IMG/VR virus record: IMGVR_UViG_2737471839_000018
Location: 1-10,087 of that record
Reading direction: 5' to 3' (one strand)
Length of the DNA stretch: 10,087 nt
Source of the DNA: a virus
Taxonomy: Duplodnaviria > Heunggongvirae > Uroviricota > Caudoviricetes
Shown: positions 1 through 4,859 of the stretch, piece by piece
Position numbering within the stretch: the first letter of the stretch is position 1
How the letters are laid out: each line of letters starts with the position of its first letter
Notes under the pieces: generated by a model
Databases searched by the model: none
Told to the model about the DNA's origin: nothing
What the model saw: the letters and a program-made list of their open reading frames with translations, nothing else
Program-made: the position numbers and the translations under genes

Positions 1-251
1 GGTCATGGCCTCCATAGTGATGGCGGGTCCTCCTTGTGGGGTGCCCTGCCACGGGGCGGGAGCATCGCGGAAAAAGGCTAGTTTTTGCATTTTTATTCGT
101 CATCACCACCAATGCAATATATTGATATGACTTGATGTTTTATTTTTCGGTGTCGATTTCGATTGTTTTTTGTTCATCACTGACGCATAACGCCCACCAG
201 CGCAACGCTGAAAGCCAGTCAGTAAACTGGCTTCGGTCATTGTGCACTACG

Positions 252-794
252 TTACTTGTCTTTATCCGGCTGAAACTTATCAGGCACATTTCCGGTAGTT
301 TCCATCAGATAATCGGACAGCATTCGCGGGATGTTTTCATCAAGTTTTGTGCATGCGTTACAGGCTCTGACAACTTCTTTTTTCAGGCCATCCAGCATGG
401 CGGGGGTCATCTGTGGGAAGCTCCTTTGCATAGTAAGCGGCAGGCTGCCCATGATTGAAGAAATCTGACTCGCCAGTTTTGAAAGCGCATATATACAAAA
501 TTCCGTACTAATCACATCGCCGCGTTCGCTCTCGTTTTTAAGCTCCTGCGCCTCCGCCTGCGCTGTCAGCAATCTGATCCTGACTCGCAAAAGCTCATCA
601 TTATCAATCTCTCCTTTGTCGTTTGTAAGCTGGTTAATTGCATTGTTAACCCTATTGTCTATCACGCTGGCAACATCATAAAACGCCTCACGGCCTTTAC
701 GCTCAACGGGAGTCACTCCCCACTTGTCGAATGCTGTAGCACTTACCCGGCAGCTTTGCGCCATGGTTTTTTTGTTCATCAGGTGCGATTTCAT
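252..794 (-). CDS. Small terminase subunit, lambda Nu1-like (TerS)
   Basis: Translation has the segment RLLTAQAEAQELKNESERGDVISTEFCIYALSKLASQISSIMGSLPLTMQRSFP...KLDENIPRMLSDYLMETTG, which matches lambda Nu1 as I recall it (RLTRAQADAQELKN...AFCTFVLSRIAGEIASILDGLPLSVQRRFP...LDELIPGLLSEYIEQSG). The N-terminus (NKKTMAQSCRVSATAFDKWGVTPV) resembles the Nu1 winged-HTH region. The ORF-track start at 797 is TTG; ATG codons are at 794 and 779, and 779 (MNKK...) aligns best with Nu1 MEVNKK. Stop TAA at 252-254. Confidence 0.85.
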   Translation of the reverse strand: MKSHLMNKKTMAQSCRVSATAFDKWGVTPVERKGREAFYDVASVIDNRVNNAINQLTNDKGEIDNDELLRVRIRLLTAQAEAQELKNESERGDVISTEFCIYALSKLASQISSIMGSLPLTMQRSFPQMTPAMLDGLKKEVVRACNACTKLDENIPRMLSDYLMETTGNVPDKFQPDKDK

Positions 795-821
795 CAATAT
801 CCCAACTTGGTCAAGGTTTCA

Positions 822-896
822 GGTTGGTGTGTTGGTGTTATCTTTCCCTTTTTATTCATGGAGATAGAGCAAACAACAAAACCACCACCACCACCC
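822..896. repeat. Candidate cosB-like repeats between cosN and the terS start: tandem GGTTGGTGT/GTTGGTGTT (822-839) and (ACC)5 tract (881-896)
   Basis: Direct repeats seen in the sequence at the position where lambda carries its R-sites and IHF site. The sequence is unlike the lambda cosB R-sites as I remember them. Function is inferred. Confidence 0.3.
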
Positions 897-927
897 TGAA
901 AAAGCTCATAAATAGCGAAAAACCGCG

Positions 928-939
928 AGGTCGCCGCCC
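928..939 (-). other. Lambda-type cohesive end site cosN (12-nt overhang sequence)
   Basis: Plus strand 928-939 reads AGGTCGCCGCCC, the lambda right-end cohesive sequence. The minus strand reads GTTACG GGGCGGCGACCT CGCGGTTTTTCGCTATTTATGA, nearly identical to the lambda left end for about 35 nt, then diverges. Orientation is cosN, then cosB, then terS, as in lambda. Confidence 0.8.
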
Positions 940-971
940 CGTAACAGGTCCATATGCCGGAAAGGACCCGC

Positions 972-997
972 AAAAAAGCCGGATTTCTCCGGCCTTT
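972..997 (-). terminator. Rho-independent terminator ending the capsid operon (hairpin also usable from the plus strand)
   Basis: Stem GCCGGA (978-983), loop TTTC, stem TCCGGC (988-993). Flanked by A6 on plus (T6 on minus) and by CTTTTCT on plus. Sits immediately after the stop of the 137-aa gene at 1000. Confidence 0.7.
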
Positions 998-999
998 TC

Positions 1000-1413
1000 T
1001 CAGATGGTTTTCAGTATGCGATCGATGTCGCCGTCATCGCCCGGGTTTCTGCCATCGTATGCCATGCCAGCTGATACGGCTTGTGGGCTGTGCATGTCCA
1101 TAAAGTTTTCAAAGGCTGCGGTAAGCTCTGGTGCAACCTTCGGGCGTTCCTGCTCTATGGTCATGTTCAGGATGTTTTTAGCCGTATCAACATCAATACA
1201 AGGCACGTTTGCCATTGCACGTAACAGCGGCTGATAGTCGTCAGATTCATGAAGCGACATAATCGCATCAGCGCGCGGCTTGTCCTGTTCTTCCAGTTTG
1301 TTAAGTTGATATATAGCTTCGTAGGTTGATAGACATCTGTCAGCCATTGCCCGCGCTTCGGCTTTAAATTTACTCGCCAGCGGTAGCGCCATGATACTTT
1401 CATTCGTTGCCAT
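1000..1413 (-). CDS. Hypothetical protein (137 aa), last gene of the capsid operon
   Basis: ATG at 1413-1411 preceded by CAGGGGGAACG (SD-like). Follows the D-like gene by 12 nt. Acidic C-terminal region. No family recognised. Confidence 0.65.
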   Translation of the reverse strand: MATNESIMALPLASKFKAEARAMADRCLSTYEAIYQLNKLEEQDKPRADAIMSLHESDDYQPLLRAMANVPCIDVDTAKNILNMTIEQERPKVAPELTAAFENFMDMHSPQAVSAGMAYDGRNPGDDGDIDRILKTI

Positions 1414-1425
1414 CGTTCCCCCTGC

Positions 1426-1761
1426 TTATCGCGCCAGCGGCTGAACGGATACACCAGAACCCGCAAAGGCGGCACATTTTTTCGCGTCGGTGTCGACGCT
1501 CTCAGGCCAGTTAACGGCGGCAATATTGAATATCCCCGTCTTGTAACACTGTGCTGATTTCTGCGTTGACGTGTCCACGGGATACGCCGTCAGATAAACA
1601 GCCTTGCCAGATTCCTGACCATCCCACGGCTTAAATTCGCCATTGTCCGCCAGCATCAGCGGGGTAAATTCCTGAATAACGCCAGCATCAGCGGCAAAAT
1701 GTACCAGCGTCGTGGCGACCTGCTGACTGCCTGCAAATAACTCAATGTATGGAGTGTCCAT
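1426..1761 (-). CDS. Head decoration protein, lambda gpD-like
   Basis: 111 aa. Motifs TPLMLA, WDG, YKTGIF, WPESVDTDAKKCAAFAGSGVSV parallel lambda gpD ([37 protein letters not shown]) as recalled. ATG at 1761 with a GGGGGA SD. Confidence 0.85.
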   Translation of the reverse strand: MDTPYIELFAGSQQVATTLVHFAADAGVIQEFTPLMLADNGEFKPWDGQESGKAVYLTAYPVDTSTQKSAQCYKTGIFNIAAVNWPESVDTDAKKCAAFAGSGVSVQPLAR

Positions 1762-1772
1762 AGAATCCCCCG

Positions 1773-2828
1773 TTAACCAATTTTGACGGTAACAAATTTG
1801 CGAATATCTGCCGGAACAGGCTGCGGTGCGCTGTGCGTCTGCACGTACTCAATCGCCGGATCGCCGTCCTCAATCCAGTTTTTCGGGTAAAACATGTTTT
1901 GCGTTGCGCCCGTTCTGACCGCTTCCTGATCCATAATCGCACCATAGGCCACCAGCCCTTTATTGTTGGTGTTGCCCAGGACCAGCAAATCAGGCTCAAG
2001 GAAATATTTTTCGGTGCCGTCGCTGTCAGTGTATTTGCCGGAATAGACGATAAGGGCAATATCGCCCAGATATCCTTTAAAGCTCACCACTTCGCCCAGG
2101 TTTTTACAGGCCAGCTCTGCGGCGGACTCTGAACCACGGGAAAGATCGTACAGTTCGCGGAATTTTTTAAAGCTGCGTAATGTTCGCCATACCTCAGCGC
2201 CCATGATCATGACGTTGGCGGGGCAACCTGCTTGATCCGCATAAAGCTCGATATCATAAATTGGATCGTGGGTTTCTTTGTCCTGCTCGGACCATTTACG
2301 GCCTTTGGCCTGCTCTATGATGTTTTTTTCCGGTATCTTCCAGTCGATTTCATAGCGTTCTATGCCCTCGCCCTCAATGATGTTTTTTCCGGTCGTTACC
2401 GCATTCACCGCCAGCCATTCCACGCGCGCTTTAATCGCGTTTATCTGGCGGCGCATGTTGCCAGTAATCAGGCGCATACGGCGATAGGTTGGGTCATTAA
2501 GCTGTGCCGGATCTTCTGCAGCCATACGCATGATGGTTTTCGTTGGATCGATTTCGTGCTTCGGCTTCATGTATCCAGGTTTAATCGTGCTGGTTTCGTA
2601 CCCTTTATCGCGCTGGACCTGACTACCCACCATAGGCGAACAAAACGCCGACATCGTAACCTCTTCAATGTCCAGGGTGTCCAGCATGATGTTTTGGGTG
2701 TTGAATGTCGCCACGTTCGGGAAAAACAGCGTGGTAAACAGCGGACTGAATTTAAATTCCGCAATATCCCCGCGATTCAGGTACGCGAAAAGCTGGTTAG
2801 TGTTAAGTGCCGTTGCTTTGCCTGCCAT
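1773..2828 (-). CDS. Major capsid protein, lambda gpE family
   Basis: 351 aa. Shares many blocks with lambda gpE: FKFSPLF..LFF, PGYMKPKHEIDP, DPAQLNDPTYRRMR, RGSESAAELACKNLGEVVSFKGYLGDIALIVYSG, VLGNTNNKGL.AYG, YPKNWIEDGDPA. ATG at 2828 with SD GGAGGTG. TAATG overlap with the upstream gene. Confidence 0.93.
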   Translation of the reverse strand: MAGKATALNTNQLFAYLNRGDIAEFKFSPLFTTLFFPNVATFNTQNIMLDTLDIEEVTMSAFCSPMVGSQVQRDKGYETSTIKPGYMKPKHEIDPTKTIMRMAAEDPAQLNDPTYRRMRLITGNMRRQINAIKARVEWLAVNAVTTGKNIIEGEGIERYEIDWKIPEKNIIEQAKGRKWSEQDKETHDPIYDIELYADQAGCPANVMIMGAEVWRTLRSFKKFRELYDLSRGSESAAELACKNLGEVVSFKGYLGDIALIVYSGKYTDSDGTEKYFLEPDLLVLGNTNNKGLVAYGAIMDQEAVRTGATQNMFYPKNWIEDGDPAIEYVQTHSAPQPVPADIRKFVTVKIG

Positions 2829-3034
2829 TATTCACCTCCATGCGTCTGATTCATGCCCAGCGCCGCGCGTAAATAGGCGCGGACCTGCCAGCCTGTTGAC
2901 GGCTCAACCATTGCCAGCGGATCAAGTCCTGCCTCAATGCCTGCTTTTACGTTCTGCTGGTGGCGTTCCTTGAGCGCCTTCACGATGTCGGGGCTTATGT
3001 ACACCGAAACACCGCCTTTTTTCTCTTCAGCCAT
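2828..3034 (-). CDS. Hypothetical small protein (68 aa), first gene of the capsid operon
   Basis: ATG at 3034 with SD AGAGGAA upstream. Its stop TAA overlaps the ATG of the capsid gene (translational coupling). No family recognised. Confidence 0.6.
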   Translation of the reverse strand: MAEEKKGGVSVYISPDIVKALKERHQQNVKAGIEAGLDPLAMVEPSTGWQVRAYLRAALGMNQTHGGE

Positions 3035-3062
3035 AGTAAGAAATTCCTCTTCGACTTAAAAA

Positions 3063-3130
3063 ATCATAACTGGATGTTCATCCAGTTATGATTATAATCA
3101 TGATTGCATTTTGTGCAATGGTATTGAGTT
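3063..3130 (-). promoter_or_regulatory. Putative capsid-operon promoter/operator: 30-bp perfect palindrome plus palindromic ATTATAAT (-10-like) and a second dyad ATTGCA-N5-TGCAAT
   Basis: ATCATAACTGGATG-TT-CATCCAGTTATGAT at 3063-3092 (14-bp arms). ATTATAAT at 3091-3098 reads as TATAAT on either strand. ATTGCATTTTGTGCAAT at 3104-3120. All lie 30-100 bp upstream of the operon ATG at 3034. The -35 is weak. Confidence 0.45.
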
Positions 3131-3199
3131 GTGTTGCAAATTATGAAATTATTATCCCAATCATGTGTGTCAGTGCACCAAAAAGCCTCATATGCAAAA

Positions 3200-3237
3200 G
3201 CCCGATAAGAACCCTCTGACCTTATCGGGCTTTTTTT
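3200..3237 (+). terminator. Rho-independent terminator oriented for plus-strand transcription
   Basis: GCCCGATAAG (3200-3209), 11-nt loop, CTTATCGGGC (3221-3230), followed by T7 (3231-3237). Confidence 0.55.
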
Positions 3238-3242
3238 GGGGC

Positions 3243-3265
3243 AAAAAAGCCGGATTGCTCCGGCT
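3243..3265 (-). terminator. Rho-independent terminator for the 74-aa gene
   Basis: AGCCGGA-TTGC-TCCGGCT hairpin (3248-3265) preceded on plus by A6, which is T6 after the stem on minus. Same core as the hairpins at 978-993 and 3611-3628. Confidence 0.65.
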
Positions 3266-3284
3266 ATGTGTGCTGTGTGCTGGC

Positions 3285-3509
3285 TCAGTCTCTGATCTCT
3301 TTCAGAAATTCTATCAATGCATCTATCTGTTCAGGATTTACCGCCAGCATTTCACCGGATAGCGCACATCTGACAAATCCATGCCGATCCTTTTCAATCA
3401 ACGCGCCCGTTTCCAGGAATGCGCGGTAATCAGTGATGTTCATCGTCTCCATGTTGTCAGCATGGTATTTATCACGCTGTTTTAATATCTCATCAAATTT
3501 CATCGGCAT
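3285..3509 (-). CDS. Hypothetical small protein (74 aa)
   Basis: Chosen start is ATG at 3509 (MPMKFDEIL...) with strong SD CAGAGGAAAAAACA. The longer ORF-track start at 3587 has no SD and abuts the upstream terminator. Monocistronic between two terminators. Confidence 0.6.
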   Translation of the reverse strand: MPMKFDEILKQRDKYHADNMETMNITDYRAFLETGALIEKDRHGFVRCALSGEMLAVNPEQIDALIEFLKEIRD

Positions 3510-3604
3510 TGTTTTTTCCTCTGTTGTGTCTGTTTGTTTCAGATAGTAACTATGCCGGACCGTGACGAAAACCCGGTAATGCGCCATACCGTTTCAACTG
3601 GTGC

Positions 3605-3628
3605 AAAAAAAGCCGGATTTCTCCGGCT
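3605..3628 (-). terminator. Rho-independent terminator for the PerC-like gene
   Basis: A7 (plus 3605-3611), then AGCCGGA-TTTC-TCCGGCT (3611-3628). On the minus strand the stem is followed by T7. Confidence 0.7.
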
Positions 3629-3634
3629 GTGTGA

Positions 3635-3907
3635 TTAGCTGTACTGGTAATTGCGCCATATATCATCACCAGCACCATCCATACCCATTTCGGCATAAGT
3701 GCGATCGACTGCCTTTTTCAGGTCTCCGAAATTATCCGGCGGCTCCGGTGCCCTCTGTGCCTTCCTTGAACATTCCAGCCGTCGCATCGTGATGTGATGC
3801 CGTTCCTTGTCTGTCTCCACCAGCTGCATGACTTCACCCCATCGCGCCGCCGCCCTCCGGTAAAAGCCTTTCGCCTCCAGTTCCTCCGCTATGCGGTCAT
3901 GTACCAT
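3635..3907 (-). CDS. PerC-family-like transcriptional regulator (90 aa)
   Basis: N-terminal AEELEAKGFYRRAAARWGEVMQ resembles the PerC family signature as I recall it (moderate certainty). ATG at 3907. The SD is a G10 homopolymer. Confidence 0.6.
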   Translation of the reverse strand: MVHDRIAEELEAKGFYRRAAARWGEVMQLVETDKERHHITMRRLECSRKAQRAPEPPDNFGDLKKAVDRTYAEMGMDGAGDDIWRNYQYS

Positions 3908-3909
3908 CG

Positions 3910-3919
3910 CCCCCCCCCC
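3910..3919. repeat. Homopolymeric tract C10 (G10 on the coding strand) between the ssb stop and the PerC-like start
   Basis: Counted directly: C at 3910-3919. Minus strand reads TGA-GGGGGGGGGG-CG-ATG. Confidence 0.9.
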
Positions 3920-4330
3920 TCAGAACGGAATATCATCACCGTAAGGGTCATCGCCTCCAGCTGGTGGCTGATTACCCTGTGTGCTTGTGGTCTTGCGTCG
4001 GCTCCCGCCAGGACGGGCAGCACTGGCACTGATTACACTGTCTGCGATAACCTGATAACCCTGCCGCGTTTCCCCGTTCTGTCCGGTCCACTGGCTAACC
4101 TGTATCGTGCCGGATACGCTGGCAACATCGCCTTTTTGATGTTTAGCCAGGTAGTCGGCCTGCTTGCCAAATGCGATGACCGACAGCCATAACGTCGCCT
4201 GTCCGTCCTGTGCCTGGCTGCATGGCAGCGATACCGCCATACGAGCCAGCGTCATTGGTGTGCCCTTGCTGGTCTGTTTTACCTGCGGGTCGTCCACCAG
4301 CCGCCCGTAAGCGGCTATCTGTGCTGTCAT
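3920..4330 (-). CDS. ssb: Single-stranded DNA-binding protein (SSB)
   Basis: 136 aa. OB-fold-like blocks (GRLVDDPQ, WLSVIAFGKQA, QKGD, WTGQNGETR), a Gly/Pro/Gln-rich linker, and a C-terminal acidic tail ending DDIPF. ATGA overlap with the upstream gene. Confidence 0.85.
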   Translation of the reverse strand: MTAQIAAYGRLVDDPQVKQTSKGTPMTLARMAVSLPCSQAQDGQATLWLSVIAFGKQADYLAKHQKGDVASVSGTIQVSQWTGQNGETRQGYQVIADSVISASAARPGGSRRKTTSTQGNQPPAGGDDPYGDDIPF

Positions 4331-4572
4331 GATTCCACCTCTCCGGTTTTAACGTTGATGGTTGTTACCTGTTCCGCTTCGGCAATCTCCCGTTCTGTCA
4401 GCGTGGCAAAGTTTGCCGCCGTCGTGGTCATGAATGCGCTTATCAGTTCGGGATGTGCTTTCGCGTATCCTTCCCCGGCGTTGCGGTCGATGATTTTTAT
4501 CGCCACCCTCAGCCAGTGTTCTGTCAAATCAAGGGCGTGAGATTGTGGTTTTTTGGCGTGCTTCGTTGTCAC
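4327..4572 (-). CDS. Hypothetical protein (81 aa), coupled to ssb
   Basis: Only an in-frame GTG start at 4572, with GAGGT about 8 nt upstream. Stop overlaps the ssb ATG. Lies directly downstream of the iteron region. Confidence 0.5.
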   Translation of the reverse strand: MTTKHAKKPQSHALDLTEHWLRVAIKIIDRNAGEGYAKAHPELISAFMTTTAANFATLTEREIAEAEQVTTINVKTGEVES

Positions 4573-4620
4573 AGGCTTTACCTCACAGCAATAAAATAAA
4601 ATTTTTGCATTTCAACCCTT

Positions 4621-4846
4621 CACCTGTTCACCTTTTGCAATTTTCCCTTTTTATTCATAATGTTAAGGGGTGAACAGTTTCACAAAAACTATTCACCAAC
4701 TGTTCACCACTGTTCACCCTTAAAGCTCAATAAAGAATCAAAAAGGTGAACAGTGAATAGTTTGGTGAACAGTTCATAAATAACTGCTCACCCTATAATA
4801 TACTGATATAAAAGACATTTATTGCAGGGTGAACAGTGGTGAACAG
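4621..4846. repeat. Iteron cluster / putative origin of replication (TGTTCACC octamers in both orientations in an AT-rich context)
   Basis: Perfect TGTTCACC at 4625-4632, 4701-4708, 4711-4718. Perfect reverse GGTGAACA at 4669-4676, 4745-4752, 4764-4771, 4828-4835, 4838-4845. Degenerate copies near 4692, 4754 and 4785. To my recollection this octamer is the P4 alpha-binding type I iteron of ori/crr. Confidence 0.75.
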
Positions 4847-4859
4847 TTATTCCATAAGT

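Follow-up and report, generated by a model that had tools for sequence, protein, structure and literature searches.

Introduction

Islands of the EcCICFT073 type serve as the model for phage satellites in Gram-negative bacteria and are defined here by an integrase gene (int), alpA, a primase gene with origin (ori) iterons, a late module of lambda-like capsid genes and a cos site, all within about 10–15 kb. Their induction has been described as dependent on AlpA and a helper phage and as independent of the SOS (DNA-damage) response, while the capsid homolog c1499 and the decoration homolog c1500 of EcCICFT073 are both without a known phenotype (PMC6092414). In the staphylococcal satellites, the packaging operon known as SaPI operon I is described as LexA-controlled (Ubeda et al. 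2007, as cited in PMC6092414). Here, we consider the promoter region of the capsid operon in a 10,087-nucleotide stretch of viral DNA (IMG/VR record IMGVR_UViG_2737471839_000018, positions 1 to 10,087; hereafter, the window), which, judged by its gene content, is a phage-inducible chromosomal island (PICI) and a close relative of EcCICFT073, a satellite of Escherichia coli phages. Ahead of this operon lies a perfect palindrome whose core, in our assessment, is probably an operator for the host repressor LexA, placed across the start of a sigma-70 promoter; DNA damage would thus probably switch on the capsid operon directly.

Enterobacterial LexA boxes have a 16-bp CTG-N10-CAG core inside a 20-bp imperfect dyad with the consensus TACTGTATATATATACAGTA, and the Gram-positive type of box is CGAAC-N4-GTTCG. 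Eighteen boxes upstream of UV-induced E. coli genes are tabulated in PMC3009722 (Table 4), and these include the boxes of ruvA (CGCTGGATATCTATCCAGCA / TTCGCTGGATATCTATCCAGCATTT) and cho (CACTGGATAGATAACCAGCA / TACACTGGATAGATAACCAGCATTC).

A candidate LexA operator at the start of the capsid operon

Positions 3060–3120 of the window, read directly, are aaaatcataactggatgttcatccagttatgattataatcatgattgcattttgtgcaat. Within them, a repeat finder delineates the inverted repeat AATCATAACTGGATG-TT-CATCCAGTTATGATT with arms of 15 nt each that are 100% complementary and separated by 2 nt. A preliminary description, made from the sequence before the present analysis, had given the repeat as exact, with 14-bp arms, and as abutting a palindromic −10 element; the exactness and the adjoining both hold, but each arm is one base longer, and the right arm actually overlaps the palindromic ATTATAAT (3091–3098) by 3 bp. 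The palindrome is real and above chance: a 51-nt stretch containing it has a folding energy of −19.1 kcal/mol, where shuffled versions give −5.8 ± 2.1 (z = −6.4) and none of 200 does as well, and the 15-mer arm, searched at up to 3 mismatches, finds in the window only its own two copies, with 0.23 expected.

The center of this palindrome, AACTGGATGTTCATCCAGTT, has the CTG-N10-CAG arrangement and, by eye, matches the LexA consensus at 13 of 20 positions, with CTG and CAG included among them. Its CTGGAT-N4-ATCCAG core has its half-sites in common with the ruvA box, and CTGGAT also forms one half of the cho box. Candidate sites were scored by a heterology index (HI), using a symmetrized matrix that was built here from the 18 boxes of PMC3009722 and is distinct from the original matrix of Lewis et al. 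On this scale, the proven boxes range from 1.8 to 12.2, or from 2.0 to 17.0 when each box is left out of the matrix (n = 18). The site in the window scores 7.34, which is comparable to ruvA (7.27), cho (7.03) and lexA (7.01) and lower than uvrD (8.4), dinG (9.1), ftsK (9.1), dinB (10.1) and polB (12.2), whereas every other 20-mer in the 10-kb window scores 17.8 or higher. None of 300 shuffles of the window held a site reaching 7.34; random sequence of the window's composition would yield 0.0015 sites as good per 10 kb, and random sequence of AT-rich intergenic composition, 8e-5 per 250 bp. In E. coli K-12, the low-HI class of LexA-binding sites has been found to peak at 7.34 against a background at 22.3 (PMC12527982), an agreement that is approximate in that a different matrix was used.

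The predicted promoter also places the site where a repressor would be expected to act. A weight-matrix scan of both strands across 3000–3300 places first the minus-strand sigma-70 candidate TTGCAC-16-TATAAT, with a score of 10.8, and the predicted LexA box starts 3 bp downstream of its −10. A LexA dimer on the box would therefore cover about −3 to +17, the standard position for repression by LexA. The preliminary description had postulated a promoter of the capsid operon at this place, with the site of a dimeric regulator at its start; both proposals are borne out insofar as this promoter is the best candidate on either strand and the palindrome covers the predicted start, as would befit the operator of a dimeric repressor.

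That LexA binds here, where the transcript starts and that the operon responds to SOS are inferred from these observations, and the following course of events may be envisaged. The minus-strand promoter would drive a unit that comprises the homologs of c1498–c1501 and encodes a 68-aa protein along with E-like capsid, D-like decoration and Nu3-like proteins. In the undamaged cell, the bound LexA dimer would block RNA polymerase; upon DNA damage, RecA-stimulated self-cleavage of LexA would free the promoter, and the operon would be switched on as resident helper prophages are induced, with no need of a helper product.

Conservation across relatives

The site was followed through 88 homologs of this locus, drawn from IMG/VR and the genomes of E. 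coli, to which divergent relatives were added by way of the 68-aa protein (L246 from Salmonella, L248 from Pluralibacter, and L250–L253). The HI is at most 10.5 in 86 of the 88 loci and at most 9 in 78; the two that exceed 10.5 are L003 and a sequence of metagenomic origin in which 1 bp has been inserted. Over 44 haplotypes, ACTG (3069–3072), ATG (3074–3076) and ATCCAG (3080–3085) are invariant, while variation falls on 3086–3088 (11, 8 and 20 haplotypes, respectively), 3065, 3067 and the center (3077–3079). Change at the center and just outside the 16-bp core is the shape that a LexA footprint would have, and the substitution G3073T, seen in two haplotypes, shifts the half-site towards the consensus CTGT. 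The box is also kept in the Salmonella (GACTGGATAAATATCCAGAT) and Pluralibacter (AACTGGATGTTTGTCCAGTT) relatives, at HI 8.8 and 9.1, although the 68-aa proteins of these relatives are only 62–68% identical.

The palindrome as such has fared differently. Perfect arms of at least 13 bp occur in only 27 of the 88 loci, with most loci having 7–9 bp, such that a perfect palindrome of 30 bp characterizes this lineage and a LexA-grade box is retained where the long palindrome mostly is not. Among the relatives, it is only the inner part of the palindrome that is conserved. The outer 5–6 bp of each arm lie outside the predicted operator and are probably a lineage-specific extension, which probably arose through templated correction of a quasi-palindrome, through a secondary role as an RNA hairpin, or both.

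A second LexA-box-like sequence, TAGTGTATAAAAAACCAGTA, is found between int and alpA in a related locus (L001 15204–15223, E. coli LZHX12). It has an HI of 8.2, with GTG replacing the essential CTG, and is absent from the window's own int–alpA spacer.

A dimeric site over a promoter start might have served a regulator from the satellite or its helper phage. The preliminary description had named AlpA, PerC-like proteins and helper late activators in this role, and the 68-aa protein, as an autoregulator, can be added to them. An operator on the predicted start would indeed suit a repressor; the full palindrome and the 68-aa gene occur together, and L003, in which that gene is lacking, is also without the palindrome; and the N-terminus of the 68-aa protein, VSVYISPDIVKALKERH, resembles a ribbon-helix-helix by eye, with an AlphaFold2 model that has a strand followed by two helices. 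On the other hand, the half-site has no other copy anywhere in the island, the alpA region included; the palindrome is missing from L250 and L252 even though both carry the 68-aa gene; nothing similar was found in the phage collection; and the conserved core coincides with a high-scoring LexA box, for which the chance is about 1e-4 per intergenic region. Nothing speaks in favor of the three regulators originally named. Autoregulation by the 68-aa product is likewise unsupported, as the protein has no Pfam match, and its model, of moderate confidence (predicted local distance difference test score 72.7), finds no significant fold match in the PDB (best Foldseek E = 1.7). We therefore regard a satellite or helper regulator at the palindrome as quite improbable.

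The 68-aa family itself is very narrow, with 31 clusters that come nearly all from E. coli and in a few cases from Salmonella and Pluralibacter. Its gene always immediately precedes the E-type capsid gene and overlaps it, and its predicted fold is a β-hairpin with two helices that has no structural match. Mimicry of a helper-phage late promoter was considered as well and set aside, since a sensitive blastn search of 3036–3200 in 50,697 phage records yielded nothing above chance level.

Strand of the promoter and the twin dyads

The predicted promoter is more widely distributed than the box. A promoter-like block, ATTTCATnATTTGCAAC ... ATTGCAnAAAnTGCAAT-N4-GATTAtAAT, is present in all lineages, including L003, L250 and L252. 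In the divergent L003, L246, L250 and L252, A2 and T6 of the −10 are kept on the operon strand, where the hexamer reads TATAAT or TAAAAT in every divergent lineage, whereas the plus-strand reading has become TATAAC, TATAAA or TTTAAT. This pattern suggests that the −10 belongs to the operon (minus) strand.

It bears directly on a further proposal of the preliminary description, that the −10 is bidirectional and could also drive a short plus-strand transcript. Spelled out, ATTATAAT would fire on the plus strand too, with TGGATG (3071–3076) as its −35, giving a short non-coding RNA from about 3105 to a bidirectional terminator at 3196–3240. Among the sigma-70 candidates of the region, this plus-strand promoter ranks second (9.3 against 10.8 for the minus strand), the T-run of the terminator at 3196–3234 is longer on the plus strand (T7), and the block 3099–3245 folds with z = −4.1 and is conserved across different late-gene modules. 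Its fold score is, however, dominated by the terminator hairpin; Rfam has no match in the putative RNA region; and the loss of the plus-strand −10 in all four divergent relatives, with the minus-strand −10 kept, disfavors both the bidirectional −10 and the transcript, which we consider highly improbable. More generally, Rfam models run over the entire window at E ≤ 1 returned nothing in 3035–3284. Esr41, a known island small RNA of enterohemorrhagic E. coli, is encoded on SpLE1 and not on this island.

The preliminary description had also pointed to a second dyad, ATTGCA-N5-TGCAAT, and this is indeed present, with TTTTG as its spacer. It is kept in all lineages, even in those without the LexA box, and is thus more widely conserved than the palindrome. 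Part of it falls in the promoter spacer, which is normally free to vary. Together with a weaker copy further upstream, it forms a pair of twin dyads of the form TTGCA-N5-TG(C/A)AA (TTGCATTTTGTGCAA at 3104–3118 and TTGCAAATTATGAAA), which are placed at about −27 and −57, with 30 bp between one and the next. They are conserved in all relatives, even those that lack the LexA box and carry a different (HK97-type) capsid module. The motif has a third, weaker match at 3592–3606. In light of their conservation, the twin dyads may be the mark of a second regulatory input. A scan of genome contigs with the invariant block GTTGCARATTATGAAAT gave, among the matches listed, chance matches from unrelated AT-rich genomes and no homolog. 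A sigma-54 promoter and an Ogr/Delta-type TGT-N12-ACA site were considered by eye only and set aside, and a Fur box near the −10, although agreeing by eye with 14 of 19 consensus positions, has the wrong half-site spacing.

The palindrome as an RNA hairpin

The palindrome can also be read as RNA. On the minus strand, AATCATAACTGGATGAACATCCAGTTATGATT followed by TTTTAAGTCG scores as terminator-like, with 14 pairs, a loop of 4 and TTTT(TT), so that the 14-bp hairpin and its U6 run might constitute an intrinsic terminator or attenuator. It would then either shield the capsid unit from early-operon read-through or be overcome by an antiterminator; in a variant of this proposal, the inner 7–8 bp would act as a stabilizing stem-loop at the 5′ end of the mRNA. 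Apart from the strong fold noted above, an alignment of 27 haplotypes is in its favor: 94.4% of cells pair, 7 two-sided changes occur in 3 pairs, at least 12 cells have G-U on the operon strand, and none of 500 shuffles reaches the observed percentage paired or the covariation score, relatedness being uncorrected in these figures. Moreover, the Pluralibacter relative L248 has an 8-bp stem followed by U6 that lies wholly downstream of the −10, and the unrelated HK97-type L003 has a hairpin and U7 directly before the capsid ATG.

Against this, the best promoter candidate would start inside the 5′ arm, so the full hairpin would be absent from the operon's own transcript, and any read-through would first have to pass the two stronger terminators at the end of the upstream operon. 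The stem is rich in A and T, only 4 of its 14 pairs being G-C, where an intrinsic terminator would have a G+C-rich stem; pair 12-33 is broken in 12 of the 27 haplotypes; the invariant positions trace the LexA box rather than the whole stem; and the two-sided changes in the outer stem could be templated quasi-palindrome mutations, for example, TA...TA to GG...CC in one step. The hairpin is absent from L250, L252 and L003, and the U-run persists without it in L250 and L252, indicating that the run is not tied to the stem. A terminator or attenuator is thus an unlikely primary function, and we retain an RNA role, with equally little expectation, as secondary or additional to the LexA operator.

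In L003 (1335–1500, E. coli JNEC-KY176), the same promoter block stands ahead of an HK97-type capsid/protease module with an unrelated leader. This leader is structured (150 nt, −50.8 kcal/mol, z = −5.6) and is the one that ends in the hairpin and U7.

Several points weigh against LexA control of this promoter. Induction of the EcCICFT073 island has been reported as helper-phage-dependent and SOS-independent, as measured for alpA only (PMC6092414). Both half-sites are CTGG, whereas the preferred form is CTGT; hence the operator is predicted to be moderate in strength, as in ruvAB. L003, L250 and L252 share the promoter block without a LexA box, their best HI being 13–17, from which it follows that LexA control is not essential to this promoter family and that in these lineages the promoter must be controlled otherwise. 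Finally, a pure LexA model predicts neither the compensatory changes found on both sides of the outer stem (7 cells in 3 pairs) nor its many G-U substitutions on the operon strand. As for prior reports, the SOS RNA-seq supplement examined lists core SOS genes only; in the literature searched, c1498–c1503 are not mentioned together with SOS and this site is not reported; and the part of it on Gram-negative islands has no mention of LexA control.

Some of these threads might be drawn together in a two-layer switch. The DNA core would act as the LexA operator; in read-through RNA, the 32-nt palindrome with U6 would act as a terminator insulating the capsid unit; and the twin dyads would bind a satellite or helper factor, with the capsid unit integrating SOS and helper or satellite signals. 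We offer this composite only tentatively and consider it rather doubtful.

Comparison with known systems

Like the ruvAB and cho boxes, the candidate operator is a 20-bp CTG-N10-CAG dyad with an HI within the proven range, situated at or over the predicted −10 and start of the gene that it would repress. Unlike them, it is a prediction from sequence, sits on a mobile satellite rather than at a core DNA-repair gene and, in this lineage, is embedded in a 32-bp perfect palindrome with an operon-strand U-run.

A further parallel might be struck with SaPI operon I, which serves packaging and capsid morphogenesis in the pathogenicity islands of Staphylococcus aureus: in both cases, a late capsid-related operon of a satellite comes under the host SOS repressor (here as a prediction), and its release by the signal that induces the helper prophage stands apart from the helper-dependent switch for excision and replication. 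The phylum and the LexA motif differ between the two, as does the cargo: SaPI operon I has terS, cpm and ppi, whereas the unit in the window carries lambda E/D/Nu3-like genes behind an unrelated promoter.

Lambdoid late control (pR′, Q and tR′) offers a third point of reference, in that a near-consensus promoter with a hairpin and U-run within tens of bases stands ahead of head genes. Here, however, neither a Q-binding nor a pause element was identified, the −10 and start are overlapped by the hairpin, which in lambdoid phages lies downstream, and the sequence resembles that of no phage in the collection.

Island context

All genes in the window are on the minus strand (Table 1), and int, alpA, a primase gene with ori iterons, a late module with lambda-like capsid genes and cos are all found, as in islands of the EcCICFT073 type. 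The intergenic stretch 3020–3240 is 95% identical to that of the CFT073 island, which lies between phoQ and roxA and which we equate with the published EcCICFT073 on the basis of its gene order and the products of c1499 and c1500. Of 5,426 complete E. coli genomes, about 600 carry this region, among them those of CFT073, Nissle 1917 and strains of O157:H7.

Table 1. Coordinates of genes and predicted regulatory features in the window
Feature	Position	Strand	Remarks
Integrase	8849-10087	-	
AlpA	8223-8561	-	
Primase	4860-6692	-	
SSB	3920-4330	-	
PerC-family protein	3635-3907	-	
Small open reading frame	3285-3587	-	
Intergenic region carrying the palindrome	3035-3284		
Two tandem terminator hairpins	3196-3265	-	3234->3196 and 3265->3248; close the upstream early operon
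Second, weaker dyad copy TTGCAAATTATGAAA	3134-3148		About −50 to −65; in invariant block GTTGCARATTATGAAAT
Dyad ATTGCA-TTTTG-TGCAAT	3103-3119		Overlaps −35 and spacer
Predicted −35 TTGCAC	3113-3118 (3118->3113)	-	16-bp spacer; TTGC invariant among relatives
Predicted −10 TATAAT	3091-3096 (3096->3091)	-	Within palindromic ATTATAAT; unchanged in 43/44 E. coli-type haplotypes
Full inverted repeat	3062-3093		32 bp; arms 3062-3076 / 3079-3093
Predicted LexA (SOS) box AACTGGATGTTCATCCAGTT	3068-3087		CTG-N10-CAG core; CTGGAT half-sites as in ruvA/cho
Predicted transcription start zone	3082-3087	-	Placed from the −10, 4-9 nt downstream; inside predicted LexA box
A-run on plus strand	3056-3061	-	U6 run on operon strand, directly after hairpin
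Shine-Dalgarno GAGGAA	3044-3049	-	9 nt ahead of ATG of 68-aa gene; read from sequence
68-aa protein	2828-3034	-	phrog_3255; c1498 homolog; first gene of unit
Lambda-E-type major capsid protein	1773-2828	-	c1499 homolog; Pfam PF03864, E = 1.6e-51
Lambda-D-type head decoration protein	1426-1761	-	c1500 homolog; Pfam PF02924
Nu3-like 137-aa protein	1000-1413	-	phrog_1999, phrog_53; last gene of unit
GC-rich hairpin GCCGGAGAAATCCGGC then TTTTTT on minus strand	978-993		Read from sequence; hairpin listed on plus strand by scan
Nu1-like small terminase homolog	252-797	-	

The 137-aa protein at the end of the unit matches the C-terminal part of head-maturation protease/scaffold profiles, and the GC-rich hairpin beyond its gene is the probable end of the capsid unit. 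The expression of CFT073 c1498–c1501 has been reported to shift jointly (PMC12890032), which matches a four-gene unit ending at this hairpin.

Just downstream of that hairpin, between the genes of the Nu3-like protein and the Nu1-like homolog, an exact lambda/phi80-type cosN, GGGCGGCGACCT, lies on the minus strand at 928–939 and is probably the cos site of the island; the palindrome was accordingly rejected as a cos site. At the other end of the promoter region, the matches of other E. coli genomes stop at about 3237–3244, between the tandem terminators, with many genomes sharing only the capsid side of this breakpoint and others only the PerC side. It looks like a junction of module recombination, and, as the matches break between the terminators, the promoter region travels with the capsid module.

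About 10 copies of the iteron GGTGAACAGT, in both orientations, occupy 4620–4852, just downstream of the primase gene, and this region, the source of spurious microRNA-like Rfam hits, is probably the replication origin of the island. Between alpA and the downstream genes, a 900-bp stretch (7293–8213) has only an implausible 306-aa open reading frame. It contains a weak SymR-like Rfam hit on the plus strand (7497–7569; 32.8 bits against a gathering score of 61), and the matching zone of a related strain has Icd-like and YlcI/YnfO genes in its annotation; the stretch may harbor a small RNA or else small genes that overlap.

Conclusions

If the palindrome core is indeed a LexA operator, the capsid-like genes of these islands, the model phage satellites of Gram-negative bacteria, would gain a direct DNA-damage input that is independent of the helper phage and mirrors that of SaPI operon I. 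SOS-induced cells, with or without a helper, would then be the place in which to seek the function of c1499 and c1500.

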